The notes under the pieces were generated by a model that saw only the letters and a list, made by a program, of their open reading frames with translations, was not told the DNA's origin and searched no databases. This document shows positions 2,151 to 23,497 of a DNA stretch of 64,000 nt, in pieces; within the stretch, counting starts at the first letter, position 1; the number at the start of each line of letters is the position of its first letter. The position numbers and the translations under genes were made by a program. The stretch spans positions 896,001 to 960,000 of the forward strand of contig CAXWPH010000015.1 in NCBI GenBank assembly GCA_963666055.2, read 5' to 3'. Source of the DNA: Acidobacteriota bacterium (GTDB lineage Bacteria > Acidobacteriota > UBA890 > WLXD01).

Positions 2151-2209
2151 ACAGCCCCCCCGGTGACGAGCACGGGAATAAATCGCTGCGCCACCGAGGC
2201 TTTCCTGAG

Positions 2210-6021: not shown

Positions 6022-6124
6022 TGGAGAGAGTTGGAGCTACATGGACCTCGCGATCTACGCCGCACGATGATCTGTGCACACACCTGCCACGAGAGCCGAG
6101 GGACGAGCGGCGGAAGGAGAGAGG

Positions 6125-6619
6125 ATGATCGAGGAAAGGGATGGCTGGTTTGTGAAGAACGTCAAGGACGCGCCGTGGGAGCAAACCGAGGCGTTCGGAA
6201 AGGTCTGTTGGTTCGATACGGAGGATCCGTTCCCGCAAATCGGGATACATATCTTCTTGCTCGAGCCTGGCAAGCCGAACTCTCGCTACCACCGGGAAGA
6301 GGCGCAGGAGGACTTCCTCGTCCTGGCCGGGCGCTGCAAGCTGCTGGTTAACGGCGAGGAACGCTCGCTGGAAACCTGGGATTTTGTCCATTGCCCGGCC
6401 GGAGTGTCCCATGTCTTCGTCGGTGTCGACGGGCTATGTGCTCTCTTGGCGATCGGGCACCGACCCGACAGGGAAAAGGAGCAGCTGTTCTACCCGGCCA
6501 GCGAGCTGGCCCGCCGATACAACGCTGAGACTCCCGAACCCACGGGCGATCCGGAAGTCGCATACTCGGACATCAGGCAGCGGGTCAGGATCGATCCGCC
6601 GAAGTGGCCGATAGTGTAG
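6125..6619 (+). CDS. Cupin domain protein
   Basis: YHREEAQEDF and HCPAGVSH cupin motifs, with an RBS before ATG 6125. The stop codon abuts the tRNA-Val half. Confidence 0.8.
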   Translation: MIEERDGWFVKNVKDAPWEQTEAFGKVCWFDTEDPFPQIGIHIFLLEPGKPNSRYHREEAQEDFLVLAGRCKLLVNGEERSLETWDFVHCPAGVSHVFVGVDGLCALLAIGHRPDREKEQLFYPASELARRYNAETPEPTGDPEVAYSDIRQRVRIDPPKWPIV

Positions 6620-6657
6620 GGCGCACCGGGATTCGAACCTGGGACTTCCACCGTGTG
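6619..6657 (-). pseudogene. 3' half of tRNA-Val(CAC), att direct repeat copy 1
   Basis: 39 bp identical to 8959-8997, with 4 mismatches to the resident tRNA-Val. Begins exactly at the CAC anticodon. Confidence 0.85.
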
Positions 6658-6785
6658 TTCAAGCGACACACTTGACGATGGTTGCTATCCCTTGACGTGG
6701 CTTGAACTTACGGGCTGGTGGTTTTGACGTCAGTTGGGTCTGTTTGACGCTGTTTGCACCCGAAATGTCAAAGGAATTGTCACAG
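6658..6785. mobile_element. att arm-like flank 1
   Basis: GCTATC..TTACG box at 6684-6712, TTG repeats phased at 10 bp (6724/6734/6744/6754) and a TGTCA direct repeat at 6766/6778. Confidence 0.55.
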
Positions 6786-6830
6786 GCTCGATGAGGAGCT
6801 TTCGAGTCGAGTGAGCTCAACAGGGCCGCG

Positions 6831-8795
6831 CTAGCGCACGAGCGTGCCGAGCAACCTATTGACCGCCGCTATCGTGCCTTCCGGACCGGAGAGCCCCTGG
6901 CATTCGCTACAGTCCCATACCTTGGCCATGCGAATCGAGATCAGACCCTGCGGGTACATGATTACCTGGTTGGAGCCGGCGCCGAAGGCGCCCGGCAAGT
7001 AAACGACCGCGCCGCCATCGAGATCGACATGCGGCGTGAGATGGAAACCCATCTTGTAGAGTCCCTCGCCGGCTGCCAGCGGCACTGGCGCGCGTCGGCC
7101 GAATGCGGCAGCGACGGAGAGATCCGTTTCCTTGGTGATCGCGCCCTCGGTGCTGAAGATCTGGGCGGCCAGCCCCCGGTGCAGGAGTTGCTCGCCGTCG
7201 TGTTGGCCGAGGTTCTGGTACAGGGTGAAAATCTTGGCCACGTCGTCGAGGGTCACGTAGATGCCGGCATGAAACCAGGGCAGACCTAACTCTCCATCGG
7301 CCTCGCGCGTCCTTACGATCGGCGCGTGATGGATGCCGATGGGTGCGAGGACCTCCTCCTCGAGCATCTCCCAGATGTCGGCGTCCGGGCCCCTGACCGA
7401 CCTCAGGAACCCGTCGGTCGCAGCGCCGAGCAGGTGAAAGTCGCGATCGCGATAGCGCATGACGATCCCCGCTCCCCAGGGATACGGCGAGCCGTTCTCG
7501 GTGATGCTGGCGATCTTCTCGGCGTTCGAAAACGCGCCGTTGTACCAATCGTCATAGGTGTCGTCGACGTAGCCATCGCCGGTGCTGTTAGGACTGGTAA
7601 CTGAGCTTCCATGGCCACCCATGCCAGTGGCCATGTTGGCGGCGTCGATGAAGCGCACGTCGTCGTACTCGGGATCCAGCCCGGCGACGTAGTCGCCGAT
7701 CTTCAGGTCGAGCACGTAGGGACCGTAGACTTGCGCCAGACGACCGAGCGCCAGGGGCACCGTAACCGACTTGGCCACCGATCGCGGCCCGAACCGCATC
7801 TCCTGCGGATACGGATAGGGCCCGTAGGGGGTCTGCGATCCCTGGTGGTAGACAACGCCGTCGCGGACCAGGGCCTTGGCGACCACATAGTTGTCCGGAA
7901 GCGGGCCGCCAAAACCCTCGAGCGTTGCTTCTGGCAAACCCTCGTCCGCCAACGCCGTCACCAACTCGCCCCAGGGTCGCAGCGGCAACCTCGCCGCCAA
8001 CTCTGAATCGACCCGGGCTCGCCGGGCCTCGAGATTGCCGAATGCCCCCGCTTCGAACGACGCTTTCGCCGCGCCCCAGGCGACGAAGTGCACCGGAATG
8101 TTAAATGGCGCCGTCTGCTGGACAAACTGAAACCGCAGATCGGTGACCTCGCCACCGGCGTATAGAAAACTCGCGAGGCCTTGATGGGCGTGATTCTCCA
8201 TGTCATGTACCAGCATCAGGGCGAAGGCGGCGCGCGACCAGTCGCCATCGCCGGGCTGTCGCCACACACGCCCGTACTGCGGGATCACGTGCCAGTAGCT
8301 CCGGCTACCACCGGTGCGTTCGTCTCCAAGCATTTCGCCGATCTGAATCGCGGCGAGAACTTCGCCGGCGGTGAACAAGTCCAGAGTGAACGCGGGCAAC
8401 AGGCGCTTGTCGTGGCCACCCCGGCACGACCCGCCCAGCTCGACCGCCGAGCCATCGCACACCGGCTGCGGGATCTCGGGTTCAAACAGCATCCGCGTCT
8501 GCTCGATGGCAAGCCGCACAGCAAGCGCCGGAGCCGGTGTGGCGTCGCTGGGGGGATAGAAGCCGGCGTTGTCGACCGGAGCTGCCAGATCGCTGCCGGA
8601 GAGCATCATGTCGAGCGGCAACGGCGTCGAATCAGAAGAGATTTGCACGGTGCTCGATGACGGCTCGTCTACCCCAGCATCGGTCACCGCCCGCACACCG
8701 GGTCCGTCTGCCGGGCCACACGCACCGACAACGGCGACGGCCAGTAGCCAGCGCAGCCTCGCGAAGTCTCTGGCGTCGGCCGCGGGGTTCTTCAT
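6831..8795 (-). CDS. Serine hydrolase / class C beta-lactamase-fold lipoprotein
   Basis: VVGAC lipobox, SVAK (SxxK) and YRD motif. Start chosen at ATG 8795. Confidence 0.75.
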   Translation of the reverse strand: MKNPAADARDFARLRWLLAVAVVGACGPADGPGVRAVTDAGVDEPSSSTVQISSDSTPLPLDMMLSGSDLAAPVDNAGFYPPSDATPAPALAVRLAIEQTRMLFEPEIPQPVCDGSAVELGGSCRGGHDKRLLPAFTLDLFTAGEVLAAIQIGEMLGDERTGGSRSYWHVIPQYGRVWRQPGDGDWSRAAFALMLVHDMENHAHQGLASFLYAGGEVTDLRFQFVQQTAPFNIPVHFVAWGAAKASFEAGAFGNLEARRARVDSELAARLPLRPWGELVTALADEGLPEATLEGFGGPLPDNYVVAKALVRDGVVYHQGSQTPYGPYPYPQEMRFGPRSVAKSVTVPLALGRLAQVYGPYVLDLKIGDYVAGLDPEYDDVRFIDAANMATGMGGHGSSVTSPNSTGDGYVDDTYDDWYNGAFSNAEKIASITENGSPYPWGAGIVMRYRDRDFHLLGAATDGFLRSVRGPDADIWEMLEEEVLAPIGIHHAPIVRTREADGELGLPWFHAGIYVTLDDVAKIFTLYQNLGQHDGEQLLHRGLAAQIFSTEGAITKETDLSVAAAFGRRAPVPLAAGEGLYKMGFHLTPHVDLDGGAVVYLPGAFGAGSNQVIMYPQGLISIRMAKVWDCSECQGLSGPEGTIAAVNRLLGTLVR

Positions 8796-8954
8796 GGATG
8801 CCCTCTCACCTATGTTCGAACTTCTTGATGCTGCCGTAGCAGTCTGATGCAAATCAGATTGGAGCGACAGGGGCATGATCAGCCCGCCGCCCCGAGGAAT
8901 CGGAGGGGGAACCTGACGTAGGCGAGAAGTCCTTTGACCACAGGAGGTTGGAGA

Positions 8955-8997
8955 GAGTGGGCGCACCGGGATTCGAACCTGGGACTTCCACCGTGTG
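8955..8997 (-). pseudogene. 3' half of tRNA-Val(CAC), att direct repeat copy 2
   Basis: GAGTGGGCGCACCGGGATTCGAACCTGGGACTTCCACCGTGTG also matches the GAGT flanking the resident tRNA 3' end. Confidence 0.85.
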
Positions 8998-9123
8998 GGA
9001 CAAGGACGTGTTTGCCGTCGATAGCTATCTCTAATGATTAGAGGTAGTTACGTCATCGGTCATTAGCGGTTGTTGGCCGCAATTAGCCCCTTTTCACAGC
9101 CAATTATCCACGGATTACCCACA
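8998..9123. mobile_element. att arm-like flank 2
   Basis: GCTATC..TTACG box at 9024-9052, containing the IR CTATCTCTAA/TTAGAGGTAG. 10-bp-phased TTRGC at 9063/9073/9083 and a TTAYCCAC direct repeat at 9104/9115. Confidence 0.55.
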
Positions 9124-9162
9124 AGATCGGGCGTTCGGTTGTGCGCCGGCCAGGTCAGGCGG

Positions 9163-9225
9163 CTACGGGTCCATCGGCACGAGCCGCTTCAGCTCGTCGA
9201 ACCAGTTGAGAGCGACGTGGATCTG
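9163..9225 (-). pseudogene. C-terminal stub of a Ser/Thr kinase-TolB/PD40 propeller protein
   Basis: Translates QIHVALNWFDELKRLVPMDP*, matching the VxLNWFxELK C-terminus of this family. Confidence 0.65.
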
Positions 9226-9380
9226 CGTTACATGGTCCAGAACTGCACGTTACGCAGCATCTCGGCATCACCACCATGCGGGGTGCGGCCTCAGCGCTCG
9301 GCCTGGACATAGTGGCGACGCTGTGCTTGCATCGAGCGCTATCTACAAGGGCGTGTTTGCCAACATCGGATAGGTGTGTC

Positions 9381-11456
9381 ATGAACAAGAAGAAGCGTGA
9401 TCGCGCACTCGGCATGGATGCAGAAATCTCACGGCGGGATTTCCTGGACGGCGTGGCCGTGACCGTCGGGGGGACGATGGTGGTCTCCACTCTGGCAGGC
9501 GGCACCCCCGTACAGGCGCAGACGGCATCCCCGCCACCGCCGATGTCCGCTCCGCAAGCCGCACCTTCGGATTACCCACCCATGATCCAAGGGCTCCGCG
9601 GGCAAACTGACGCGGCCATGAATGCGGGGCATGCCGTCCGCGACGGGACAGCGTTCAGCGCCCCGGTCGATACCGGCGAGTTCTACGACCTGGTTGTCGT
9701 GGGTGCCGGCATGGCCGGACTTGGCGCCGCCTATTTCTATCGGAAGCAGATCCCGCATTCGAAGGTCTTGCTGATCGATGGGTGCGAAGATTTCGGGGGC
9801 CACGCCGTGCGCAACGAATTCATGGTGGACGGCACGCGCCTGATTGCGGGCGGCGGCACCGCCGCCCTCTGGCGTCCGAATACGTTTACGCCCGAGGCGC
9901 AGGAGCTGATGCGCGATATCGGGATCGACCGCGCGCACCATGATAGAGAAGTGGCCAACAACCCGAACGCGCCGCGAGAGTTGGGTCTCCGGCGAGCGGT
10001 GTTCTTCGACAAGGAGTCCTCTGGTGAGGACCGGCTCGTTATGGACCCACCGCCCGAATTGGGCCTCCGGGGCCGCAGGGGCGAGGAAGGGACGACGAGT
10101 GCTCAGTTCGCCGAATTCTTTGCCCAGACGCCGTATTCAGCCGGCACCCGAGAGGGCTTGTTGAAGCTGTTCACCGAGCACCGTGATTGGATGCCCGGGG
10201 TCCCGACCGCGGAGAAAGTCGAGCAACTCAAGAAGATGAGCTACATCGACTTTGTGAGCAACGTCGTCAAGATCCATCCCGACGCGGTAGCCCATGTCCT
10301 CTCGGTGGGCGGCACGGGCGGGACCAACCAGACCGCCGGTCCGGACACCTATAGCGCCTGGTATGCCTGGCGGAAGGGCGCACCCGGCTTCAACGCGATG
10401 GCTCTCCCGCCCGCCTCGCAGTTGTCCAACCTGGTCAAAGACCCGGGGCGGAACATCGCCTGGCCCGACGACGCGACCACCGCGGCGCGGCTCTTGGTCC
10501 GGTGGCTGATACCGGACGCCTTGCCAGGCCGCACGGCGGATGATTCGGTCTTGCAGCATATCGATTACGCCGCCTTGGACCGTCCGACGAGCGATGTGCG
10601 CATCCGCCTTTCAAGCATGGTCATCCGCGCCAAGCACCTGGGCGACCCGCTGACCGCGAAGGAAGTCGAGGTGACCTATCTGCGTGACGGCCAACCCCAC
10701 ACCGTCCGTGCGCGCGGCGTCGTGATGGCCTGCTTCAACGCCATCATTCCCTACCTGGTGCCGGACCTGCCGGAGTCCCAGAAGGCTGCGCTACATATGG
10801 CGGTGCGGAAGCCGCTCGTCGCGACCAATGTGGCCATCCGTAACTGGCGTGCGTTCCAGAAGCTGGGCGTCTCTTCGATCAACTGCCCAGGCATGTTCTG
10901 GGCGTCGATCGGGCTCGCCGTCCCAGCGGCCATCGGCGGGTATCAGAACGCGTCCACGCCGGACGAGCCGATTGTCGTCCGGATGTCCCTCACCGCTCGC
11001 ATCCTGGAGAAGGCGGGCTCCGGGCTCTCGCCGCGCGAACAATGGAAGGCCAGCCGTACCGAGCTGCAGGAGATCACCTTCGAAACATTCGAGCGCAACA
11101 TCCGCGAACAGCTCGATCGCGTCCTGGGACCTGGCGGCTTTGACGCAAAGCGTGATGTCGCGGGTATCATCATCAACCGCTGGAGTCATGCCTACGCCCC
11201 CGGGTCGAATGAGCTGTACGATCCCGACTGGTCACACCGGATGGATGCTCCATGGGTGGTCGGGCGTCAGCAATTCGGTCGGATTACGATCTCGAACTCG
11301 GATGCCGCGTGGGTTTCGCTCACGAACGCGGCGTGGCAGCAAAGCCACCGCGCCGTGAACGAGCTCATCTGCAACGTGGTTCGGCCGGTGTTCGATTGGC
11401 AGTGGTCCGAAAGTATGCACGCCGGCGAACCCGGCGACTATCCGAACAACTTCTAG
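9381..11456 (+). CDS. Second Tat-exported SpdH-like FAD oxidoreductase
   Basis: SRRDFL Tat motif, VGAGMAGL, GGHAVRNE, NRWSHAYA and ISNSDA. Colinear with 2338..4323. Confidence 0.85.
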   Translation: MNKKKRDRALGMDAEISRRDFLDGVAVTVGGTMVVSTLAGGTPVQAQTASPPPPMSAPQAAPSDYPPMIQGLRGQTDAAMNAGHAVRDGTAFSAPVDTGEFYDLVVVGAGMAGLGAAYFYRKQIPHSKVLLIDGCEDFGGHAVRNEFMVDGTRLIAGGGTAALWRPNTFTPEAQELMRDIGIDRAHHDREVANNPNAPRELGLRRAVFFDKESSGEDRLVMDPPPELGLRGRRGEEGTTSAQFAEFFAQTPYSAGTREGLLKLFTEHRDWMPGVPTAEKVEQLKKMSYIDFVSNVVKIHPDAVAHVLSVGGTGGTNQTAGPDTYSAWYAWRKGAPGFNAMALPPASQLSNLVKDPGRNIAWPDDATTAARLLVRWLIPDALPGRTADDSVLQHIDYAALDRPTSDVRIRLSSMVIRAKHLGDPLTAKEVEVTYLRDGQPHTVRARGVVMACFNAIIPYLVPDLPESQKAALHMAVRKPLVATNVAIRNWRAFQKLGVSSINCPGMFWASIGLAVPAAIGGYQNASTPDEPIVVRMSLTARILEKAGSGLSPREQWKASRTELQEITFETFERNIREQLDRVLGPGGFDAKRDVAGIIINRWSHAYAPGSNELYDPDWSHRMDAPWVVGRQQFGRITISNSDAAWVSLTNAAWQQSHRAVNELICNVVRPVFDWQWSESMHAGEPGDYPNNF

Positions 11457-11469
11457 GGCTCACGGCGAG

Positions 11470-11580
11470 CTTGAGGTCATCGGCCAGGTAGGCCGTTGCC
11501 ATGCCGCCCTCGCCCAGCTCACGCTCAATGGCGTAGCGGCCTTCGAGGGCTGCGTTGAGGCGGGTGACGGGATCGGACAT
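11470..11580 (-). pseudogene. N-terminal stub of a Hanks-type Ser/Thr kinase
   Basis: MSDPVTRLNAALEGRYAIERELGEGGMATAYLADDLK contains kinase subdomain I (GxGG) and is truncated before VAxK. Confidence 0.8.
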
Positions 11581-11791
11581 ATGCGCACTCCAGGATCAGA
11601 CTGCGCTCAACATCCGAGAGCGGGCCGGTAGGCGCAAGCAGAAGCCCGTCAGACGCTGAGAAGCTCGCCTGTTACGAGTTGCTCGTGCCTTTCTAGGCCG
11701 TCCTCAAAATTTGGTGCGTACGCCTGAGCAGGAGTCACACGCGTATATACAGGCCCCTCTTGGGGGGAACCCGCCTTTCGAGGAGAGCGGG

Positions 11792-12988
11792 TCATAATCT
11801 ACCCAAGCCAAATTGGTCACCTGCCTTGGTTACTTTGCCGTCTTGCATATGTATCTCAATCATCTTTTCGCTGCAAACGGTGTTGTAATTTTCATCTTTC
11901 AACAAGTACAAAATTCTCCGTGTCTTGGTATGAATCACTTCGCCACTAGATGCATAGGCATACTGACCATCTATACTAAAAGTGACCCAACCCGGCATAT
12001 CACGTAGTGCAATGGTGGTGAGCTGTTGATAAGGGGCTTCTCCGCTAAAGACATGCATTCGCATATTATGGCCATCGCTAATCCATATCTCTTTTTCATC
12101 TGGGGTCAAAGCTATACCGTGACTTGGATTTTCATGTCGTTGTACGGGACCTTTGTCCCAACCCTGGACCTGAACACTCGCTACCTTTTCTCCTGTTTTC
12201 AAATCACCCACTTCAAATCCCAGTAAATCATCAACGTTCACAAACACAAGCGACTCGTCGCTCTTGATGGTAAACGGTCGCACAGGCCCACTAAAAAGGC
12301 CTATTTTCTGTACGACTGTGTGCGTTTTGGTATCTGCAACGTACAACCAGGGAGATTTATAATCCGCCATATATGCTCGATTTCCTGAAGGACCGTAAAT
12401 CGTGTTGTGTGCACTGGTATCTACTACGATCTTGGCAATGACATCACCGGTTTCGGTATTCACGACATTCCAAAACTCTTTTTCTAAGGATGGCAAATAC
12501 ATGGTCATCCCATCAGGTGAAATTGACATACGGTCACAGCCGCCCTCAAAAGCGATGTCCCACAGCACCTCTTCCGTACTCAGATCTATTCGCTGCATAC
12601 CTTCCAAGGTGGTGATATAGACACTGTTGAGCGGCACACTGACATCAATGCCCTTGACATTTGACGGGCTGCCATCTTCATGGAACCCCCTAGTGCTAAT
12701 TCGTTTTACAAAGTTGTGATTGTTGTCTATATCAAAAACCAGCAATCCGTGACCCCCATAGCCCAAATAATCTCTGATACCAGGAGTCGCTACATACAGG
12801 TAGTGGCCGGTACCCCCTGTTGCCACAGGTTCATCTATGGGTGGAGGACTTGGTATCATCGAAGCGGTGCTAGCGGCCGCGGCTCCCGGCGCGAGGACCG
12901 TTCCCGCGATCGCGATGCTCGCCCCGTTCAGCAAGTCGCGACGGTTGATCTCCCGGTCCATGCCCAGCTCGCGGTCGCTCTTCTTCAT
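11792..12988 (-). CDS. YncE/YVTN beta-propeller protein with a grafted Tat signal (chimera, low-GC body)
   Basis: Propeller blades (YLYVA, SISPDG, HGIALTPD, FSIDGQYAY). The first ~35 aa match SpdH-like 2338, and GC drops abruptly at ~12870. Confidence 0.85.
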   Translation of the reverse strand: MKKSDRELGMDREINRRDLLNGASIAIAGTVLAPGAAAASTASMIPSPPPIDEPVATGGTGHYLYVATPGIRDYLGYGGHGLLVFDIDNNHNFVKRISTRGFHEDGSPSNVKGIDVSVPLNSVYITTLEGMQRIDLSTEEVLWDIAFEGGCDRMSISPDGMTMYLPSLEKEFWNVVNTETGDVIAKIVVDTSAHNTIYGPSGNRAYMADYKSPWLYVADTKTHTVVQKIGLFSGPVRPFTIKSDESLVFVNVDDLLGFEVGDLKTGEKVASVQVQGWDKGPVQRHENPSHGIALTPDEKEIWISDGHNMRMHVFSGEAPYQQLTTIALRDMPGWVTFSIDGQYAYASSGEVIHTKTRRILYLLKDENYNTVCSEKMIEIHMQDGKVTKAGDQFGLGRL

Positions 12989-13162
12989 TCTCAGGTCTCC
13001 TCGAGGATCGAAGTGTAGGCCCCGGAATCCAGTTCCATTTCTTCAAGCTCTGATGATAGATGGCACGCGTCCTAAGCACCATCACCCAAACAATGTTCAC
13101 TGATCACTAAATCCAACCCCCAAAACACTCGCGTGCCAGAGCCAACAGCGGCGGTCCAACGC

Positions 13163-13378
13163 TCACCGCGGTCTCCTCATTCGCCGCACCTTGCCACGCT
13201 TGATGCCGAGCGACGGCACTGTTCGCTGCACCTGCTCCGACCTCCATCGTGCGACCAAGTGCTTGTAGTTCTCCTCGATCATCTTGGTATCGGAATGACC
13301 GAGCTGTTCGGCCAAGTCCGTCGGCGATCCGCGGTTCATGAGGTAGGCGCTCGCATAGTGGCTTCGGAACTGATGGAC
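13163..13378 (-). pseudogene. Tyrosine integrase C-terminal remnant
   Basis: Not in the ORF track. Translates VHQFRSHYASAYLMNRGSPTDLAEQLGHSDTKMIEENYKHL..., with HxxR, LGH and the catalytic Tyr. Confidence 0.85.
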
Positions 13379-13465
13379 CAGGCCTTCCTGCTGATCTGGT
13401 TATTTTTTTCCGCGGCCATCATCGCCCACGGCGCCTGGGGCCTGCTCAAGGACTAGTCGAGCGCG

Positions 13466-15130
13466 TCACCGAACCGTTACCGCCTCGCTTGGCGCGTAGC
13501 CCAGACGATGTGCCACGGCGTGCAGCTGGTGCCCGGCCGGCAGCGTTACCGGTTCCGTGTAGACGTGCCACTGCGTCCCCGGCATGCCGCCCTCGGCCAC
13601 CACCTGGTATCCGATGGAGGCGCCTTCAGTAGCGGAGTGGATCGTGATCTCATTGCCGTCGCGTTGGATTCTCGGAGCCATCGTCGGGGGCTGTTGTCGG
13701 CCCGGCCAGAACTGCTCCAGCAAGTCGGCTTCGGGGATGAGGCCCTTGTCGTCGGTGGCTTCCATCCAGCGGTCGAGCTCGGCCCGGAGGTCGGCGAGCT
13801 TGGGGGCGTAGGTCGGGTCAGCGGCAAGGTTACGGAGCTCGTGAGGGTCGGCGGCAGTATCGAACAGCTCTTCGCGCGGCTTGGACGGGCGGAACCACTG
13901 CGCCTGGTATTCATCGAGGCCGCCGGCATCGCGCAGTCGTAGCAGCTCCTGCATCGTCGCCATCTGCTCGCGGTAGGTCACCGCCAGGTAGTAGCCGCGC
14001 TCGGGCTGGAAGTTACGCAAGTACTTGAACTGGCTGTCGCGCACGGCGCGGATCGTGTCGTATTCGGTGTCGAGGCGATCGGCGGCGGCGTGGACGTAGC
14101 GGCGGGGCTCGGCGGCGCGCGCGGCACCGAGGAACGCTCTGCCCTCGACGTAGCCGGGCACCTCGATGCCGGCCAGGGAGAACGTGGTCGGGGCGAAGTC
14201 GACGAAGCTGACCAGCTGATCGTCGACAGCGCCGCCGTACTGGGCATCGGGAAAGCGGATGATCATCGGAACATGTAGGCCCGAGTCGTAGAGCAGGCGC
14301 TTCTGACGCGGCAATGGGCCACCATGGTCGGCGTACCAGACCACGATGGTGCGCTCGAGCAAACCGTCGGATTCCAGCTCGGCGAGGATCTGCCCGACCT
14401 GTTCGTCCATCTCGACGACGTTCGAGTACATCCGCAGCACATCACCGCGGACAGCGTCGGTGCGGGGCAGGTAGGGCGGGATGGGCACGTCCAGGTCGGC
14501 GTCCACCCGTAACGGATCGTCAGCCTTGGCCCAGATCTGCGACTCGTGCGTGACGCCGAAGTTGAAAACCGAGAAGAACGGAGCTCCCGACGGGCGATCG
14601 CGCCAGTGGGCCTCGCCGCTGCTCGCGTCCCAGGCGGTCACCGGCGCGGTGAGCTGGTAATCGTGCTTGGCGTTGTTGGAGGTGTAGTAGCCGTTGCGCC
14701 GCAGCACCTCGCTCATCATCCGGACCTGCGGAGGCGGCACGGTCTCATAGGGGAGGAGGCCGATGGCGTCCATGTACGCCTGCCGCGAGCTCGTACGCAT
14801 GTTGTGGGCGCCAGCGCTGGTGGTGTAGACGCCCGTCGCCAGTGAAAACCGGCTAGGTGCGCAGACACCAGAGACCGAGAACACATTCCTGTAACGCACC
14901 CCTTCGCGTGCCAGCCGATCCAGGTGGGGCGTCTTCACGGTGGAATCGCCGAAGGCGGCAAGGTAGGGGCTCATGTCCTCGGCCACGAGCCATAAGAAGT
15001 TGGGGCGGGACGCCTGGTCGAGGCTTGGATAGCCCACCGGCGGGTCGGACAGCGGGGGCTCTGACCGCTGCGTGTCACACCCGGCGCCGACGAGCAGCAG
15101 GGTCAGGATGACGGCGGCGAGGTTCTTCAT
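13466..15130 (-). CDS. Sulfatase lipoprotein with C-terminal Fn3-associated-like domain
   Basis: GAGC lipobox, PNFLWLVAEDM, CAPSR and DHGG. Confidence 0.9.
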   Translation of the reverse strand: MKNLAAVILTLLLVGAGCDTQRSEPPLSDPPVGYPSLDQASRPNFLWLVAEDMSPYLAAFGDSTVKTPHLDRLAREGVRYRNVFSVSGVCAPSRFSLATGVYTTSAGAHNMRTSSRQAYMDAIGLLPYETVPPPQVRMMSEVLRRNGYYTSNNAKHDYQLTAPVTAWDASSGEAHWRDRPSGAPFFSVFNFGVTHESQIWAKADDPLRVDADLDVPIPPYLPRTDAVRGDVLRMYSNVVEMDEQVGQILAELESDGLLERTIVVWYADHGGPLPRQKRLLYDSGLHVPMIIRFPDAQYGGAVDDQLVSFVDFAPTTFSLAGIEVPGYVEGRAFLGAARAAEPRRYVHAAADRLDTEYDTIRAVRDSQFKYLRNFQPERGYYLAVTYREQMATMQELLRLRDAGGLDEYQAQWFRPSKPREELFDTAADPHELRNLAADPTYAPKLADLRAELDRWMEATDDKGLIPEADLLEQFWPGRQQPPTMAPRIQRDGNEITIHSATEGASIGYQVVAEGGMPGTQWHVYTEPVTLPAGHQLHAVAHRLGYAPSEAVTVR

Positions 15131-15177
15131 CGCGCTCCCGTATGACGGTGTGTAGCCCCGTGCTGATTTCGAGTTAA

Positions 15178-16346
15178 GGAAGGTCTGATCAATTGGCCGT
15201 CAGTCAGGATGGAGCCTGATTGGAGGAACTGGTCGGCATAAGGGTGGGAATGCAGTCGCCCTCCGAGCTGCTGCCGACGGGTTCAACCGCGACGGCGGCC
15301 TCTCAGGGTGCCTGTTTCAGGTGTGCGCGAGCAGCACCTTGCGTGCCATGAATAGGTTGGCCAACGCGCAGGTCACGAAGAGCCGGTGCGCGTTCTTGTG
15401 GAGCCCTCGGTATCGGACCTTTCTGAAGCCGAAGATGCGCTTGATCACCAGCATCGGGTGCTCGACTTTGGCCCGCACCTTCGACTTGGTGCGGTTTCGA
15501 GCTCGGTCTCGCTCGGTCAGTGGCCGGTGACGGTGCCCTTTCTTGTTGGTGAAGTCCTTGGCACCGGGAGCACACCGGACAATGACCTCCCGTCGGCCCG
15601 TATAAGCGCTGTCTCCCCACACCCGCGTCTCCTGCCCATGCAGCAGATCCTCTAGCACCTGGCTGTCATGGACATTGGCGGCGGTGGCCACGACCGAGTG
15701 AATGAGCTTGGATTTGCTGTCCACACCGAAGTGTCCCTTCATCCCGAAGTACCATTGGTTGCCCTTCTTGGTCGAGCGCATCTCCGGATCCCGCTGCTTG
15801 GCCTTGTTCTTGGTCGATGACGGGGCGGTGATGATCGTCGCGTCGACGATGGTGCCCGTGCTGACCTTCAGCCCCCGCCCCTGCAGGTGCTCGGCAACGA
15901 TGTGGAACACCTGCACGCCCAGCTCGTGGGTCTCCAGAAGGTGCCGGAACTTGCACACCGTCGTCTCGTCCGGCGCCGGCTCCCGTCCCAGATCGATCCC
16001 CACGAAGGCACGCATCGCCCGCGAGTCGTACAGCGCCTCCTCCACCCCCGGGTCCGACAGGTTGAACCACTGCTGCATGAAGTAGATGCGCAGCATCCTC
16101 TCCAGCCCGACTGGGCGCCGTCCCGCTCCCTTCGGCTTCGGATACACCGGCTCGATCAAAGCGCACAGCTGGGCCCACGGCACCACCTGATCCATCTCTG
16201 CCAGGAACCGCTCCCGGCGGGTCACCTTCCGGTACTGCTCAAAGGACCCTTCGGCAAGCGTCTGCTGGCGCATTCCCTTCTCCCTCTGGCGGCGTGATCG
16301 GATCCGCGTGCATTATCCCATCGAACCCGAATTGATCAGAGGTTCC
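15178..16346 (-). mobile_element. IS5-family insertion sequence, complete (1169 bp)
   Basis: TIRs GGAAGGTCTGATCAATT / GGAACCTCTGATCAATT (15/17), with TTAA duplicated at 15174-15177 and 16347-16350. Confidence 0.95.
15317..16273 (-). CDS. IS5-family DDE transposase
   Basis: TRRERFL, PDETT, IVDAT, WYFGMK, GDSAY and RAKVEH. Confidence 0.95.
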   Translation of the reverse strand: MRQQTLAEGSFEQYRKVTRRERFLAEMDQVVPWAQLCALIEPVYPKPKGAGRRPVGLERMLRIYFMQQWFNLSDPGVEEALYDSRAMRAFVGIDLGREPAPDETTVCKFRHLLETHELGVQVFHIVAEHLQGRGLKVSTGTIVDATIITAPSSTKNKAKQRDPEMRSTKKGNQWYFGMKGHFGVDSKSKLIHSVVATAANVHDSQVLEDLLHGQETRVWGDSAYTGRREVIVRCAPGAKDFTNKKGHRHRPLTERDRARNRTKSKVRAKVEHPMLVIKRIFGFRKVRYRGLHKNAHRLFVTCALANLFMARKVLLAHT

Positions 16347-16348
16347 TT

Positions 16349-16362
16349 AACTTGACAGTACC
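16349..16362 (-). mobile_element. IS6-like terminal repeat cut off by the IS5 insertion
   Basis: Reverse complement is GGTACTGTCAAGTT, with the same TTAA-nTTGACAGT context as positions 14-29. Confidence 0.5.
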
Positions 16363-16425
16363 CCCCCCGGCTCATCGCGCCGAGGGACTTGCTCCATCTC
16401 CCGTTCAGTTTCATGTCCGGAACGC

Positions 16426-17553
16426 CTAGTTCGTGAGAACCAATCCTCGGCCGACGAGCTTTATGGGATCGGCTCCGGGCTTCGGAACGAACTTGCTCAA
16501 CCATCCGCCGTCCCAGCTGGCGACATAGACGTTGCCGTCCTGGTCCACGTCCATCTGGTGTGGACGCGCGAGGCCACCAGGAAAGCCACCCCTCGTCCCG
16601 CCGAACGCACCCCAGTGGTACTGGAGGACCCCGTCCAGGTTGTACCTGAGGATCCGGTTCAGTGCCGCAGAAACCACCCAGACCGCGTCATTCTCGTCGA
16701 TAAAGATTCCGACGGGATCGGTGACGTCGGGCCACTCCTCGATGAACTCGCCGTCTTCCGTAAAGACTTGGATGCGGTCGTTGTTCCGGTCGCCGACGTA
16801 GATGCGGTGATCGCGGTCCACGGCGACGCCGTGGATGAGGTCGAACTGTCCGGGGCCGCTCCCGACCGAGCCGAACTCCGACACGAGCTCGCCGGCCGCG
16901 TTGTACCTGGCGATACGACCGTTCTGGTAACCGTCCCCGAGCAGAAAGTCGCCGTCCGGGAGGAAGGTCATCACCGAGGCCTGGCCGAAGTCGAGTGGTC
17001 CCGGGTTCTTGTTCGCCCGTGCCTCCTCCCCGCTCTGGCGCGGGTTGGGGTCGATGAGCCGCATCACGATCTGTTTGCCGTCGTTGGAGAACTTGATGAC
17101 CTGCTCGTGGATGTCTCTGGTTCCTCCGCCGCGCTCGACGAGCCAGATGTGGCGCTCCGGGTCGTAGGGGCTGATGTAGACCTGGTGGGGAGTGTTGAGC
17201 ATGGTGTCCCACTGGGTCCAGCGCTCGACGATGTCCCCGTTCCCATCGACGACCACCATGTAGTTGGAGCTGTCCGGCCGCTCTTCGCCTTCGGCGTTCC
17301 GGTCGCCCCACACTGCAACGATAATCCGGTTCGGATTGTCAGCCGCCACACCAGAGACCTGACCCCAGGTCCACTCCTCGTCGTGGTCTGGCGCCGGCTT
17401 CCACCAGTCTGCCACCGGATCGTATCCTCCGGTACGGTCGTCCCCGCCCTTCATGGCCGCCTCCTGTGCGGCCTGGTCCTCACCAGCGCAGGCTGGGAGT
17501 ATCGCCAGCCCAACGGCGAGGAAGAGGGCCACGCCCATGCGCTCTAGTCTCAT
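16426..17553 (-). CDS. NHL-repeat (PAL-like) beta-propeller lipoprotein
   Basis: LPAC lipobox, GDGYQNGRI, GSGPGQFDLIHGVAVD and DRNNDRIQVF. Confidence 0.85.
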   Translation of the reverse strand: MRLERMGVALFLAVGLAILPACAGEDQAAQEAAMKGGDDRTGGYDPVADWWKPAPDHDEEWTWGQVSGVAADNPNRIIVAVWGDRNAEGEERPDSSNYMVVVDGNGDIVERWTQWDTMLNTPHQVYISPYDPERHIWLVERGGGTRDIHEQVIKFSNDGKQIVMRLIDPNPRQSGEEARANKNPGPLDFGQASVMTFLPDGDFLLGDGYQNGRIARYNAAGELVSEFGSVGSGPGQFDLIHGVAVDRDHRIYVGDRNNDRIQVFTEDGEFIEEWPDVTDPVGIFIDENDAVWVVSAALNRILRYNLDGVLQYHWGAFGGTRGGFPGGLARPHQMDVDQDGNVYVASWDGGWLSKFVPKPGADPIKLVGRGLVLTN

Positions 17554-17647
17554 CGTCAAATCCTCTCGCGGAAAGGCTTTCATAGAAGCCGATAGAAAGG
17601 GCCGCCGTTCACATGCGGTTCAATTCAGCGGCTCGAGACAGGCCGCG

Positions 17648-17900
17648 GACACTGTCAACTTTACCTGGGCGACGCACGGATTTGGGCGAGTTCTGGCCCT
17701 GAAGCTGGGTTCCTTCAGACGGTGACTACCTCACTCCAGGTCCCAAAAGCGCTCGTCCGAAGTACCCGGTAGTCCGCGGATCGTAGTCGGTGCCGGCTCA
17801 GGTTGAAGAGATTCCGGACGACAGCGTGCACCGACAGAAACCGTTGAGCTTGAGCCGCAGACTTGAACCTCCGTATCTGTCGCTCGCGCTGCCGTGTCTA
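17648..17900. mobile_element. IS6-like element end remnant
   Basis: Starts GACACTGTCAACTT (one mismatch to the end at 16-29). No intact transposase follows. Confidence 0.4.
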
Positions 17901-18641
17901 TTACCAGAGCTTGTCCACCTCATCGGTGAGACCCGTCAGCTCCCAGTGGGCGAGCGCGAACGGGATGAGGCCGGCGGCGAGAATCTCGTCGATCACGTCG
18001 GGCATGTTGAAGTCGTCGCCGAGCTGGTGGGCGCGGTCGGCGATGATCTTCTCGAACTGGCTTCTTCCCACCGGATACGCCACCTGATATCCGGGCGCCC
18101 TTACGGCGTCGCGCTTGTGGTTCCACATCGAGCTGCTGTCGGCAATCGCCCAGCCGTAGGGAGTCATATCGGCCTCGAACTGGTTCCACCCGGCGTAGTC
18201 CACGGCGTTGGCAATGAACTGCAGTTCCCCCATCGCCCGGGCGCCTTCGTAGGCGTACTCGATAACCTGGAGCTCTCGGGCTCGGCGCCCCGGTCGCTCG
18301 TCGTAGACGCCGGCGTGCATGAGCACCTCTTCCAATCCGCCGGCGAACCCCTCCCAACGGGGATGGGTCAACTCGTAGAGTCGCCGGGCGGCGCGTATCG
18401 GCGACTGAGTACCCGTCTGCCGGATGGAATCGAGCCCGTGACCGATGTCCTCGTGGATGATGTTCATCTTGGGGTTGCGGGCGATCAGGTTGGTGAAGAA
18501 CGACATCGGCCGGCCCATCCATTCCGTCGACGCCGGTATCGCAACGTCACCGATACGGGCGTAGGCCTCGGCGATGTCGACGAATCCTCGTTCCCGGAGG
18601 AATTGCAACAGCTCATCCTCCGCCTCGGCATAGGCTCTGGT
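17901..18641 (-). pseudogene. DUF885-like protein, C-terminal fragment
   Basis: HEDIGH, WEGFAGGLEE, PGYQVAYPVGR and ILAAGLIP. The 5' part is replaced by parA sequence. Confidence 0.6.
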
Positions 18642-19170
18642 GCAACCGACCACGGCCGCGGGTGTGTTTTGCATCCCTTCGGGGGCCATGCTGCACGCTG
18701 ACGAGATCGTCACAAGGCACCTTCAGGCCGCTGTCGCGGCGCTGAACGCCCGCCGATGGCGCTACCTATTGATTGACACCCCGCCGTCGCTGGGGCCGGT
18801 TACGATCGCGGCGATGGCCGCTTCTGCTGGGGTGATCGTGCCCGTGTCGGCGACACCGATGGCGCTTGATCGCGTGGCAGCCACAGTGGCTCAGGTTGAG
18901 GCCGTGCGCGCCGGGCTCAACAAGGCGCTACGAATTGTCGGCCTGGTCGTCTGCCAGGCGAAGGTGCGGACGCTGGTCTACCGCGACGTGCGGGGGATGC
19001 TCGAGGAGCAATACGGCGCGCTGGTGTTCGACACGGCGGTACGGGACACCGTGCGGATGGCAGAGGCACCCTACTACCGCGAGTCGATCATTACCTACGA
19101 CAACACCGGCACCGGAGCCGAAGACTACCGGTCACTGGCAATCGAGTTTGAACGGAGGGCAATGAGATGA
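18640..19170 (+). pseudogene. parA: ParA/Soj ATPase, N-terminally truncated
   Basis: LLIDTPPSLG, VIVPV and AEDYRSLA. The deviant Walker A (KGGxGKT) is missing. Confidence 0.8.
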
Positions 19171-19544
19171 CGCCGCGACGTGTCGGGCTTCAACCACACG
19201 CTGTCGACGAAGCTGAGTTGAGGGCCGCGGAGAGAGTGATCGCCGACACCAAGCAGACGGGCGAGAAGAAGAGCAAGGAGAAGGCGCCGCCCCCGTGGGC
19301 AGTCAGGATCGACCCGGCGGTAGTTGAGGACGTGCGGAACGCCGATGTCTACCTCACGATGCTAGCGAACGCTGCTGCGTCTGGGCTGACCGACAAGCCG
19401 GCGCCAACGACAGTGTTGGGCATGAGTGGGCTCGTTGAGGCGGCGCTGAAGCGCGAGTTGGCGCGGCTGTCAAAACGCTACAACGACGGCAAGCCGTTTC
19501 CTCGTCGAGTCACCGAACCTCGGCGCGGCCGTCGGGTCGGCTAA
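19167..19544 (+). CDS. Small plasmid-type centromere-binding protein (ParB_C-like)
   Basis: ATGA overlap with parA, and C-terminal LVEAALKRELARLSKRYNDGKPFP..RRGR. Confidence 0.7.
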   Translation: MTPRRVGLQPHAVDEAELRAAERVIADTKQTGEKKSKEKAPPPWAVRIDPAVVEDVRNADVYLTMLANAAASGLTDKPAPTTVLGMSGLVEAALKRELARLSKRYNDGKPFPRRVTEPRRGRRVG

Positions 19545-19691
19545 AGGAGCGACCACGACATTCGAGGCAATCGCAGACTGCCGGTCGCCGGCAGTGCCGT
19601 CGTGGCGGTGCTGCCGGCTATTGGGCTGGTGGATGCGGTGATGCCGCAGGAGATTCCCGAAGTAATAGATGCGTAGTCGAGGACTAGTCCT

Positions 19692-20138
19692 CTACGGTTC
19701 CGCTTCGTATGGAAGGCCCCCCGAGTCCAGGATGACGATCATCGCCGTGGGGCATTCCAGTCGCACGCCAGGGGCCATCCCCATATTCGCGGGGTCCATC
19801 GTGACGATGTCGTCGCCGAAGAAGATCGTGTCGGCCTGCGGCCCCGAGTCGCCCCCGGGTATATTGGGCCGGTCGTTGACGACCATCGGGAACGGGTCTC
19901 CCTCGAAAGTGCGTGTGCAGGAGCGTTGGTCTCCGTCGAAGCGGACGGTGAGCATTCCATCGCCGGTCGTGCCGCCTGCCTCGACCACGCGGAATGCGGT
20001 CGCGTTCGATTGGCCGCCCGTAGCGACATCGTCACCACCCTGGTTGACAGACGTCGGCCAGAGCAGCAGAACGACGAACCCGATGACCGCGAGCGCGATC
20101 ACTATGTGTCGGATCGACCACTTCTTCGACTCGGCCAT
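19692..20138 (-). CDS. Hypothetical membrane-anchored protein
   Basis: GGAGG RBS, an N-terminal TM helix and a soluble domain with 2 Cys. Confidence 0.6.
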   Translation of the reverse strand: MAESKKWSIRHIVIALAVIGFVVLLLWPTSVNQGGDDVATGGQSNATAFRVVEAGGTTGDGMLTVRFDGDQRSCTRTFEGDPFPMVVNDRPNIPGGDSGPQADTIFFGDDIVTMDPANMGMAPGVRLECPTAMIVILDSGGLPYEAEP

Positions 20139-20579
20139 TGGACCCCTCCCGGTTATTCGTCGTGCTGGTAGATGCTGGTAGATGCCGATACCTTCGCCGC
20201 ACCCGGCGACATCCCGGACGCGAGCTCATCCCAGTACGACCTCAGCGGATCTTCGATCATCGGCATGTCGATCAGGATAAACGGTGATCACCGGCTCGAT
20301 GGTGGTATTCGCCGATCGTGTACCCCACTGGCGCCGGAAGGGTTGTGTTCTAAAAGTCTCCTTATCGAACACAAAAGTGACTGCGGGCCGACGTAGCAAA
20401 GCGAGCTCGGCGCTACAACCGACGGCAAGTCGTTCCCGGCTCGCGTCACCGAGCCGCAACGCGGTCGACGCGCCAGCTAGTTCCACACCGCGATCGAGAA
20501 AGACCGATGATGTGTATAGGGGTCTCGCCGACGGACGCATGCGAAAGGTGCGGACTGGCCCACCGAAGAGGGGGAAGAC

Positions 20580-20936
20580 ATGAGGTTGATCGTGGCCATG
20601 ATCCCCGTTGTCTGGTTGTGGGTCTTTTTCATCCGGTGGATTGTGATGAGCCGCAAGGATGGTGCCGGACGGTACGCCGCGTATATGGAGAAGCACGTGT
20701 GGGAATACTGGGTCGCCTGGGCGTTACTTCACGTGATGAGTCTTTACGCATTCCCCGAGGCGCTCGGTGCAGCCTTTGCGCGGTCCCTGCCGGGGCTCGT
20801 GGCCGTCCTGATTTACATGGCGTACTGGAGGGGTCGACTGAACTTCGGGCATCGCCGAGTAGGCCAAGTGTTCTTCCACTGGACCTATTGGTTCAATACC
20901 TTGTTCGCCGTGGTGCGGGGAGCACAAGCTGGCTGA
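20580..20936 (+). CDS. Hypothetical membrane protein
   Basis: RBS, and several hydrophobic aromatic-rich helices. Confidence 0.55.
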   Translation: MRLIVAMIPVVWLWVFFIRWIVMSRKDGAGRYAAYMEKHVWEYWVAWALLHVMSLYAFPEALGAAFARSLPGLVAVLIYMAYWRGRLNFGHRRVGQVFFHWTYWFNTLFAVVRGAQAG

Positions 20937-20963
20937 GACACTCGGCTGCTTGATAGAAAAGCT

Positions 20964-21236
20964 ATGAGCGAGACGACAGCGTACCGAGAAAATCTCGCGT
21001 CCTGGATTCGCATCTACGGCCAGCCGTGCCCCGCCTGCGGATCCTCGAGGGTTGCGGTCATTCAATACGGCTATCCGCCGCAATACCTGTTTTCAGAATC
21101 CACAGAGGTCGAGGGTGGCGGCAGGATGCTTGCCGGCAAGCTCTTCAAGCTCGGCGGCTGCTGCGTGACCGTAGGGGAGTCTCCGGAGTTCGAGTGCCTC
21201 AGCTGCGGGGAAGGGTATCGGCGTCTACCGCGATGA
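20964..21236 (+). CDS. Small zinc-ribbon-like protein
   Basis: CPACGS..IQYGYP..LGGCCV..CLSCG. Confidence 0.65.
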   Translation: MSETTAYRENLASWIRIYGQPCPACGSSRVAVIQYGYPPQYLFSESTEVEGGGRMLAGKLFKLGGCCVTVGESPEFECLSCGEGYRRLPR

Positions 21237-21352
21237 TGATGACGATGGTGATGATGATGGTGATGATGATCGGCACCCTTGACCCCATGGAGCAGCCTGA
21301 CCCCATGGAGCTCCAGCAGCGGGAACCCTAACTGGGAACCGCATATATAGGC

Positions 21353-21381
21353 TTGACATTATAAAGGCTCCGATCTATATT
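21353..21381 (+). promoter_or_regulatory. Sigma70-type promoter of the TA operon
   Basis: TTGACA-17 bp-TATATT, 10 bp before the toxin ATG. Confidence 0.7.
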
Positions 21382-21391
21382 TAGTCCTGTC

Positions 21392-21742
21392 ATGACGAAT
21401 TGGAACGTCGAATACACGGACGAGTTCGGAGCCTGGTTCGAAGGTCTGGACGAGGACGACCAGGACGCTGTTGGCGCCAAGGTCGACCTTGGCGAGATGA
21501 TCGGTTCGGCGCTTGGCCGCCCGCACGCCGATACGGTGAAGGGGTCTAGCCATCCGAACATGAAGGAGCTTCGCGTGAAGCGCCATCAGATCCGTGTGTT
21601 CTACGCCTTCGATCCGCGCCGTTCGGCGATACTGCTGATTGGCGGGGCGAAAGAAGGTGACGACCGATTCTATGACCGGATGATCCCGATCGCGGATGCG
21701 CTGTATGACGAACACCTGTCCGAGATCACCCGGAGGCACTGA
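21392..21742 (+). CDS. Type II toxin, RelE/ParE (HigB/Gp49-like)
   Basis: LGRPHADTVKGS.HPNMKELR..RVFYAFDPRR.AILLIGG.K. Confidence 0.9.
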   Translation: MTNWNVEYTDEFGAWFEGLDEDDQDAVGAKVDLGEMIGSALGRPHADTVKGSSHPNMKELRVKRHQIRVFYAFDPRRSAILLIGGAKEGDDRFYDRMIPIADALYDEHLSEITRRH

Positions 21743-21801
21743 AGGGGGTAAGCGCCGCGAGGCGACAAGCCCCGGTAGCACACGACCGGAGGCTCAAGAC
21801 G

Positions 21802-22113
21802 ATGGCTAAGACGTGGCAGGAGCTCAAGGACCGCACGATGAGTCCAGAGCGACAGAAGAAGGCGAGGGAGCTGGCCCTGCAGATGCTGGCGGAGTTGCCG
21901 CTGGCCGAGCTGCGGAAGGCACGCGAGCTTACGCAAGAGACGATGGCTGAGACGCTCAATCGTTCACAGGCGTCCGTCTCCGAGCTGGAACGACGGACCG
22001 ACGTTTACGTCGGCACGCTGCGCCGCTACATCGAGGCAATGGGCGGTGAGCTCGAGATCGTCGCGCGGTTCCCTGACGGGGACGTGCGGATCACGCAGTT
22101 CGCGGAGGCATAG
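21802..22113 (+). CDS. XRE-family HTH antitoxin (HigA-like)
   Basis: LAELRKARELTQ..QASVSELERRTD..TLRRYIEAMGGEL, directly downstream of the toxin. Confidence 0.9.
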   Translation: MAKTWQELKDRTMSPERQKKARELALQMLAELPLAELRKARELTQETMAETLNRSQASVSELERRTDVYVGTLRRYIEAMGGELEIVARFPDGDVRITQFAEA

Positions 22114-22116
22114 AGA

Positions 22117-22575
22117 ATGTGGAAAATGGTGGCCGTCGGTGACGGCATAGAAGTTGACGTCGGCCAGGGGTTCCAGGCTCACTCAGTGAGCCTCGTTGAG
22201 CCGGGAAGGATCTGTGTGCATCCGATCGCGGCGAACGCGTCGGGCGCGGCGGTGCCTTCGTATCGGTTCCCGCCGATCGGCCAGACGGTGCGGATTCGGA
22301 TCGGCGACCAGGTGCGCACGGCGGCGATCAGCGAGGAGCACGACTCTCTGATGACGCTCACGCCAGCCTACATGCGGCACGGTGGCGACGGGGCCGATTG
22401 CCCGTTCTGTTGGCAGGAACGCGTACCGGGATCGCCGACGGGGTTCGCGGTCGGAACCGGCTTCGGTCCGCACCACAACGCTCAGGCGGTCCCGACGACG
22501 CAGCACGACTGCCCAGGTTGCAAAGAATCGTTCAACAGCCTCGAGTGGTACTCGCTCGCGCGCGAGCAACTGTAG
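22117..22575 (+). CDS. Hypothetical protein with two CxxC motifs
   Basis: Starts 3 bp after the antitoxin stop and contains CPFC and CPGC. Confidence 0.5.
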   Translation: MWKMVAVGDGIEVDVGQGFQAHSVSLVEPGRICVHPIAANASGAAVPSYRFPPIGQTVRIRIGDQVRTAAISEEHDSLMTLTPAYMRHGGDGADCPFCWQERVPGSPTGFAVGTGFGPHHNAQAVPTTQHDCPGCKESFNSLEWYSLAREQL

Positions 22576-23424: not shown

Positions 23425-23497
23425 TGGGCGCAGCAGGATTTGAACCTGCGACTTCCACCGTGTGAGGATGGCACTCTAGCCGCTGAGTTATGCGCCC
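23425..23497 (-). tRNA. tRNA-Val(CAC), CCA not encoded
   Basis: Cloverleaf: acceptor GGGCGCA/TGCGCCC, D stem ACTC/GAGT, anticodon arm CCATC-CTCACAC-GGTGG, T arm GCAGG-TTCAAAT-CCTGC. Confidence 0.97.

Follow-up and report, generated by a model that had tools for sequence, protein, structure and literature searches.

The window analysed here, a stretch of 64,000 nucleotides from an Acidobacteriota bacterium (contig CAXWPH010000015.1 of assembly GCA_963666055.2), carries a 2.34-kb unit with a single gene, for a predicted serine hydrolase, between two 3' halves of a tRNA-Val(CAC) gene. A second unit of about 14.5 kb lies between this unit and the intact tRNA gene (Table 1). The genome containing the window is referred to as G000 and other genomes of its genus as G001-G004, among which G002 is a sister species; L033 and similar labels denote loci, and X8, X9, X10 and X17 denote sequencing runs. 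The unpublished genome G047 was not used as a basis for any conclusion. The earlier note on this DNA had described the two halves as identical over 39 nt, on the strand of the intact tRNA and starting at the anticodon, all of which was confirmed. They agreed over exactly 39 nt, with adjoining bases differing on both sides, and corresponded to tRNA positions 34-72, the first base being the anticodon start. The core-to-core spacing was 2,340 nt for the single-gene unit and 14,467 nt from the proximal half to the tRNA. Two further points were absent from the earlier note. Both halves had the genus-native allele, the one that forms the 3' half of the complete tRNA gene in each of G001-G004, and the intact tRNA of G000 differed from them at 4 of the 39 nt, sharing its allele with G021 of another family. 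In addition, the two halves adjoined different arms. A displaced 3' fragment of this kind, downstream of the tRNA, in the same orientation and starting in the anticodon loop, marks a tDNA island formed by crossover in that loop. The tRNA-Arg reported by ARAGORN at 6604-6680 on the plus strand was rejected, being the antisense of the distal half.

The segment 6628-8988 was covered without any difference by one contig in three of the four runs examined (two studies, one possibly the source), indicating that the structure is real and not an assembly artefact. Contig depths of flank and unit were 13.8 vs 11.2, 7.0 vs 4.8 and 5.2 vs 5.2, differences too weak to use. A join of 6657 to 8998 was not found among the joints listed, the contigs having been built from 31-letter words, shorter than the 39-nt core.

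The hydrolase gene is the sole gene between the halves. Sequence searches with the protein itself in Pfam, NCBIfam and PDB were all blank. Homologues numbered 737 among the 8,000 scored, many of them annotated with PF00144 or named 'CubicO group peptidase (beta-lactamase class C family)', and the closest named one carries the label Acidobacteriota. S339, K342 and Y448 were invariant in 26 aligned sequences, and the structure model (pLDDT 80.3) matched 6-aminohexanoate-dimer hydrolase, family VIII esterases and class C beta-lactamases with E values of 4e-10 to 1e-7. By both motif and fold, the cargo was thus assigned as a predicted SxxK serine hydrolase of the beta-lactamase fold (PF00144-like). 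The earlier claim of a lone lipoprotein serine hydrolase therefore stood as to the single gene, the SxxK motif and the fold; the lipoprotein part is a prediction drawn solely from a lipobox-like VGAC at Cys26, read by eye. Searches with this query found the gene in all four remaining members of the genus, and 96 further relatives gave no copy. In G001, G003 and G004 the orthologue was located at a non-tRNA locus adjoining the same conserved gene cluster, while neither G000 nor G002 had one there. This distribution indicated that a host-type gene had been relocated behind the tRNA.

The ends of the unit pointed to its parent. A search with the right arm, termed arm A, led to a 14.5-kb element on contig C9 of G002 (L133), which is inserted in a protein-kinase gene and bounded by a 17-nt direct repeat; the uninterrupted kinase site is present on contig C11 of G000 at 91-95% identity. 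Arm A (6665-6782) matched the right end of this element at 86% over 118 nt, and arm A plus core matched L033 at 88% over 121 nt. The element encodes a full tyrosine integrase (PF00589, PF13102; L133 16369-17532) adjoining its left end, together with a DUF3631 protein, a weakly primase-like ORF (weak PHROGs match), restriction genes and a Rieske oxygenase. No relaxase was detected among nine ORFs of L133 scanned in Pfam, seven of them inside the element, and no oriT search was made. The left end of the parent retains about the last 25 nt of a tRNA-Val half, and the frame of its integrase spans the left-end sequences and the complement of the T arm (KMSKKMSK...EKSF...VGAPGFEP); integrases extending across attP have been described for Mx8 and SSV (PMC4383910). 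The core of the parent (L133 3000-17550, against G000 C11:122170) is replaced at both ends by 17 nt of the protein-kinase gene. This repeat exceeds a tyrosine-recombinase overlap, and the att site was possibly retargeted from tRNA-Val to a kinase gene family.

The opposite end of the unit also matched the parent. Positions 8958-8893 were identical to the parent's left end at 47 of 66 nt without gaps, followed by 12 of 44 beyond, and a similarity search gave 75% over 68 nt (E 5.6e-6). The unit retains 33 codons of the tail of the parent integrase; its left homology ends at +66, and the left TGACA repeat pair of the parent starts at +68. As the homology ends where these arm-type repeats begin, the unit is one-armed: its right arm is complete, and no arm-type sites are predicted at its left end. 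From their position and from general knowledge of lambda-type att sites, we infer that the TGACA repeats bind the integrase. Such a pair was located upstream at exactly -125 in 4 of the 17 halves scanned (G000, G004, G006 and G011, from two families) and downstream in none of 32 cores, against a background of 19 matches in 11.5 Mb, a count that is descriptive because the motif was drawn from these same sequences. In those four genomes the pair was complete at -125 although the sequence between core and pair had diverged, and the homology shared by arm copies stopped just outside the outer repeat. In L033, L135 of G004, L029 of G002 and L138, right arms were eroded or cut.

As judged from these homologies, the unit carries both ends of a tyrosine-integrase element targeting the anticodon loop of tRNA-Val(CAC), without the integrase and without the left arm-type repeats. 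The proposals that the halves are integrase attachment sites, and that a full-length tyrosine integrase would occur next to the same arms, were both borne out by the G002 element. Outer arm-A fragments were also observed at gene ends or starts (G000 C15:484346 and C15:1140643; L143 2472 and 9609; L134 7890), for instance with a hydrolase stop codon inside the outer repeat or with the start of an ABC permease directly after the arm. The fragment at C15:484346 was considered as a unit inserted in a kinase gene and rejected, the two kinase pieces being different paralogues that overlap in frame position.

Table 1. Coordinates of the tRNA-Val(CAC) locus in the window
Feature	Position	Strand	Remarks
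Distal tRNA-Val(CAC) 3' half, positions 34-72, core of right (attR-type) site	6619..6657	-	Genus-native allele; last base shared with cupin stop codon
Arm A, the right arm; pair of TGACA repeats (12-nt period) at 6765-6782, 125 nt away from core	6658..6787	-	Predicted arm-type integrase sites
Cargo gene (654 aa) for predicted lipoprotein; C-terminal domain of SxxK serine-hydrolase type with beta-lactamase fold	6831..8795	-	Host-type gene; orthologues at non-tRNA locus in G001, G003, G004
Truncated left arm, 66 nt homologous to parent's left end, also coding tail of the lost integrase (+ strand EESEGEPDVGEKSFD...VGAPGFEP)	8893..8958	-	Ends just before parent's left arm-type repeats
Proximal tRNA-Val 3' half, internal junction of two units	8959..8997	-	Genus-native allele; in G002 and run X8, 3' half of intact tRNA, then same hydrolase
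Right arm of 14.5-kb unit (arm B), unlike arm A	8998..9098	-	Sequence comparison
Second, younger unit, 14,467 nt core to core	8998..23423	.	Absent at this place in G002
C-terminal remnant (78 aa) of tyrosine integrase, family other than arm-A integrase	13166..13399	-	58% over 67 aa to L148 integrase
Intact tRNA-Val(CAC), target gene; 3' half is foreign allele	23424..23497	-	4 differences; identical to G021

The state of the locus in G002 allowed the order of events to be traced. There, the intact tRNA directly continues into window positions 8997-6789 at 99.1% identity (2,211 columns), and the 14.5-kb unit is absent. For the background, 12 arbitrary regions of G002 were divided into 96 fragments of 2.2 kb, 60 of which aligned over 1.5 kb at 80% identity or higher; the median was 92.0% and the maximum 97.2%. 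The 99.1% segment against this median indicated that the hydrolase segment had crossed species recently. Segment 6789-8997 was also found in four runs of four further studies, as one contig in X8, X9 and X17 and as two pieces in X10. Among the ends listed, a tRNA 5' half lay behind 8997 in X8 and an IS (insertion sequence)-type end before 6789 in X8 and X10. The sequence of this end corresponds to the terminal repeat carried by the window's IS5-family element, and the IS5-type end was present in G002, X8 and X10. The copies in G002 and the further runs stop at 6789, just outside the right arm, and none includes it. Neighbouring island genes, flanked by IS ends, were 95-96% identical between G000 and G002. 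The G002 locus without the 14.5-kb unit, together with the foreign tRNA allele of G000, indicated that this unit was a later arrival that brought the foreign tRNA half; the proximal half is, on the sequences compared, the one displaced at that time.

The 14.5-kb unit encodes an FAD oxidoreductase, a low-GC beta-propeller, a sulfatase, an IS5-family element, an NHL protein, a ParA fragment and a RelE/HigB-type toxin-antitoxin pair. As claimed earlier, it lacks an intact integrase, with just the 78-aa remnant left; the L148 integrase matched by this remnant is 27% identical to that of L133. Arm B had no match, and hence no parent, in 25 other genomes of the order. Near-identical copies of the IS5-family element (15169-16363) occur at seven other places, and its free terminal repeats mark many island junctions in G000 and G002. 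The body of the beta-propeller (11792-12988, minus strand; GC about 50% and below) is fused to a host-type Tat-like leader, which is 89% identical over 105 nt to the leader of the oxidoreductase at 2338 (2338-2441). The fusion is shared by G002 (96%) and G003 (89%), and a foreign gene may possibly have been captured onto a host export signal. At the other side of the locus, the cupin gene (6086-6619) has a 96% identical counterpart at another place in the far more distant genome G004, the identity stopping exactly at the stop codon that abuts the tRNA half. High-copy small repeats at 577-857 (a 280-nt element with terminal inverted repeats) and 9099-9240 (a repeat of about 50 nt) have dozens of genomic copies.

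Different units were found at tRNA-Val(CAC) in relatives, and both the variability between genomes and the other cargo between such ends looked for by the earlier note were thus confirmed. Integrase-less units at the same tRNA measured 1.86 kb in L033, 3.19 kb in G004, 2.06 kb in G011, 0.59 kb in G009 and 13.0 kb in G003. With the units of the window, the sizes ranged from 0.6 to 14.5 kb and the contents from 1 to about 14 genes. The L033 unit encodes a single amidohydrolase, its arm shares 88% identity with arm A, and its displaced half is a foreign allele equal to that of G014. Two halves 1.7 kb apart lie away from the tRNA in G006. The two-ended 2.34-kb unit was not seen at any second site. 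Shared island genes were reordered among G000, G002, G004, L033 and L034, often beside IS ends; the propeller gene lies on the tRNA side of the hydrolase in G000 and on its far side in G002, and between L033 and G004 the amidohydrolase and the sulfatase have exchanged places across arm A.

Fragments of tRNA genes were also observed more widely. G000 has 46 of them outside intact tRNA genes, of which about ten are initiator-Met halves far from the gene; window positions 2209-2251 and 23247-23269 are among the sites concerned. At C5:65608-65888, C10:20102-20401, C14:492902-493156, C15:475780-476230 and C15:481222-481474, halves of two or three different tRNAs are packed closely together, within 300-450 nt. 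There are two further single-gene units: one of 1.8 kb (C5:49753-51618) is bounded by 3' halves of tRNA-Leu(CAA), and one of 2.0 kb (C6:241244-243281) by 5' halves of tRNA-Lys(TTT) together with a repeated flank of about 200 nt. In G006, three places distant from the tRNA (L021 6210-7961, L139 and L140) have reverse-transcriptase genes (PF00078) flanked by tRNA-Val halves, and in G022 (L027 5500-5784) several tandem repeats of about 70 nt, each with T arm and acceptor end, follow tRNA-Val.

A cognate integrase was searched for at several scales. The unit (6619-8997) had no match to PF00589 or to our own integrase profile, and no functional integrase, relaxase or conjugation gene was found in it. 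The G000 assembly, 95.7% complete, gave 29 PF00589 matches, none inside the window, and no cognate of the parent integrase was among its proteins, the best match being 30% over 264 aa. The parent integrase was found in 1 of 26 genomes of the class. Among the best five candidates from each of 401 genomes of the phylum no close relative was found, the others reaching 30-36%; the integrase was not found in viral contigs, and the best match in the protein collection was 49% over half its length. The profile, built from 21 integrase stretches of G000, found nothing above the level of a fragment downstream of the intact tRNA-Val(CAC) in all 13 loci of the group with at least 5 kb, loci with short flanks (L016, L030, L032 and L147) being left out. 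The same profile found eight integrases beside tRNA-Val(CAC) in other groups. The integrases beside this tRNA in Acidobacteriaceae and Planctomycetes were rejected as cognates because they are unrelated (27-33% over short stretches).

These results are probably best accounted for if the 2.34-kb unit is a cis-mobilizable remnant, corresponding to a cis-mobilizable element (CIME), that arose by tandem accretion and would leave the chromosome solely in the company of a relative that had newly integrated. The homologies show that both ends were supplied by a G002-type element, with integrase at the left end, DUF3631 and primase-like genes, cargo and a right arm. The host hydrolase gene would have come to lie inside such an element, and a deletion would have removed the integrase and, because the repeats lie in its coding sequence, the left arm-type repeats with it. 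Comparison with G002, which has the state of intact tRNA plus hydrolase, shows that in G000 the foreign-allele 14.5-kb unit was subsequently inserted at the tRNA, displacing the old half and hydrolase outwards. The complete left site of an incoming element could recombine with the right site of the unit and lift out both together, and a later precise loss of the element would leave the unit on the tRNA of the new host. Hitch-hiking of this kind needs the right arm alone, which would explain why right arms were kept, left arms were lost and the segment passed recently between species.

Several points weigh against this interpretation. No excision, circle or composite transfer was observed in the contigs examined, and no integrase-bearing element was found at tRNA-Val(CAC) in the class, the sole parent sitting at a secondary site with an altered core. 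Since the G002-type copies stop at 6789, the very copy that proves recent transfer lacks the site required by the model. The model also leaves the entry of the host gene into the element unexplained. Furthermore, CIMEs are defined as derivatives of integrative and conjugative or mobilizable elements (ICEs/IMEs), and the parent here has no demonstrated relaxase or transfer route.

CIMEs have been described as decayed elements of 1.2-13 kb with cargo, which keep att sites and lack recombination and transfer genes (PMC7563491, PMC5704250). In Streptococcus they are reported to be stacked at the target gene with the most decayed farthest from it, and are predicted to move with an element integrating beside them (PMC7563491, PMC5704250). 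The unit resembles them in being att-bounded, in its cargo and size, in its lack of recombination and transfer genes and in its tandem stacking. Cores are present at both ends, with a full right arm and a partial left arm (66 nt, no arm-type repeats), and the match of both ends and the integrase coding tail to the G002 element indicates deletion from an integrase-bearing element. The parent differs from that of the Streptococcus CIMEs as described there, being a small integrase plus DUF3631/primase-like element with no relaxase shown, and the host is an uncultured Acidobacteriota lineage; in addition, neither unit of the stack has an integrase. The tandem ssrA islands of Dehalococcoides, with metabolic cargo, are likewise delimited by 3' repeats of the target gene, and 15 of them, having no integration module, were put forward as cis-mobilizable (PMC3146451). 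In that case, however, a serine recombinase, the T-loop region of tmRNA and a 20-nt repeat are involved, instead of a tyrosine integrase, the anticodon loop and a 39-nt half. The tycheposons of Prochlorococcus combine a tRNA-specific tyrosine integrase, a replication module and cargo; in their islands new elements displace old ones outwards with partial tRNAs between, and the elements are rarer than the islands left behind (10.1101/2020.12.28.424599). In its layout, the G002 parent fits this in outline through its integrase and replication module, whereas tycheposons carry their own integrase and the 2.34-kb unit has neither module. A restored tRNA and a displaced 3' fragment mark island ends in the Islander collection, in which 2083 of 3919 islands lie at the anticodon site, site A (PMC4383910), and cassettes are added behind a tRNA in the additive islands of Alteromonas (PMC4119200); the present locus is alike in all three respects. 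Islander rejects candidates without an integrase inside or overlapping. With just the 33-codon tail at 8893-8997 and the neighbour's 78-aa remnant, units like the 2.34-kb one are uncounted there. The earlier suggestion of an undescribed class was thus not upheld, as integrase-less att-bounded units of this size stacked behind the target gene correspond to described CIMEs (PMC7563491, PMC5704250, PMC3146451). A literature search found no publication on such tRNA-fragment islands in this Acidobacteriota lineage.

An unlikely but still serious alternative is that the unit is a dead relic, a deletion remnant of an old island with a non-working right arm, and that homologous recombination, with the tRNA and island genes common to both as anchors, carried the hydrolase between the lineages of G000 and G002. 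The lack of a cognate integrase in G000, the eroded or cut right arms, the G002-type copy without a right arm and the 95-96% identity of the IS-flanked neighbouring genes would all agree with this. A relic does not readily explain why the repeat pair stays complete at exactly -125 in four genomes of two families despite the diverged sequence between, nor why arm homology ends just outside the outer repeat; moreover, the parent family integrated recently enough for G000 to retain the empty kinase site. The earlier note had counted a one-off deletion derivative against its own proposal; a deletion derivative does fit the unit, but such units are recurrent and not one-off.

An integron cassette consists of one gene plus one recombination site, with no recombinase in the unit, and the 2.34-kb unit is similar in all three respects. 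The earlier note had proposed an integron-like, trans-mobilised system; in such a system minimal units of one arm, tRNA half and gene would be singly excised and re-inserted at the tRNA by an integrase from elsewhere. The tight packing (gene plus about 200 nt), the several units of 0.6-3.2 kb with unrelated cargo, the two other single-gene units of G000, the junctions at gene ends such as the cupin stop and the changed gene order are in its favour, but the order changes adjoin IS ends, and in place of an attC hairpin there is a tRNA half accompanied by arm-type repeats. Neither intI nor attI was found; the window has no integrase and its boundaries are tRNA halves, although no attC model search was made, and the parent integrase fell far short of both integron-integrase cut-offs, scoring 95.6 bits where 265 are required and 69.6 where 435 are required. 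Consecutive halves bear arms A and B and not one repeated site family, the stack has just two units, one of them 14.5 kb with an IS and an integrase remnant, and the best G000 match to a cognate recombinase was 30%. The loss of the left repeats, the rarity of the parent integrase in the class, the wide size range, the eroded right arms and the confinement of the two-ended unit to one site likewise argue against an integron-like system, which we regard as doubtful. A further version, also improbable, is a system of one-armed gene cassettes in this Acidobacteriota lineage. A rare, roving integrase element would leave behind, and later use again, a portable handle made of the right arm and the tRNA half; host genes would be captured as far as their start and stop codons, and units of one gene would be exchanged among species, both at tRNA-Val and at secondary sites, the left arm being unneeded. 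Such a system would be integron-like and based on tRNA genes. Finally, an assembly artefact or chance repeat, for which only the metagenomic origin with some tRNA clusters duplicated between contigs of G000 could be cited, is scarcely credible given the exact 39-nt repeat, the difference-free spanning contig in three runs of two studies, which rules out an artefact as far as contigs show, and the homologous ends in other genomes.

As a CIME, the unit is ordinary in kind. The integrase and the two ends of the parent, its stripped derivative, an empty secondary site and the preceding state of the locus are all available, and whether a right arm alone is sufficient for hitch-hiking or for independent movement is therefore directly testable. 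The question bears on the many integrase-less tRNA stacks that are skipped by island finders requiring an integrase. If one-armed units did move singly, they would constitute a new gene-capture system.

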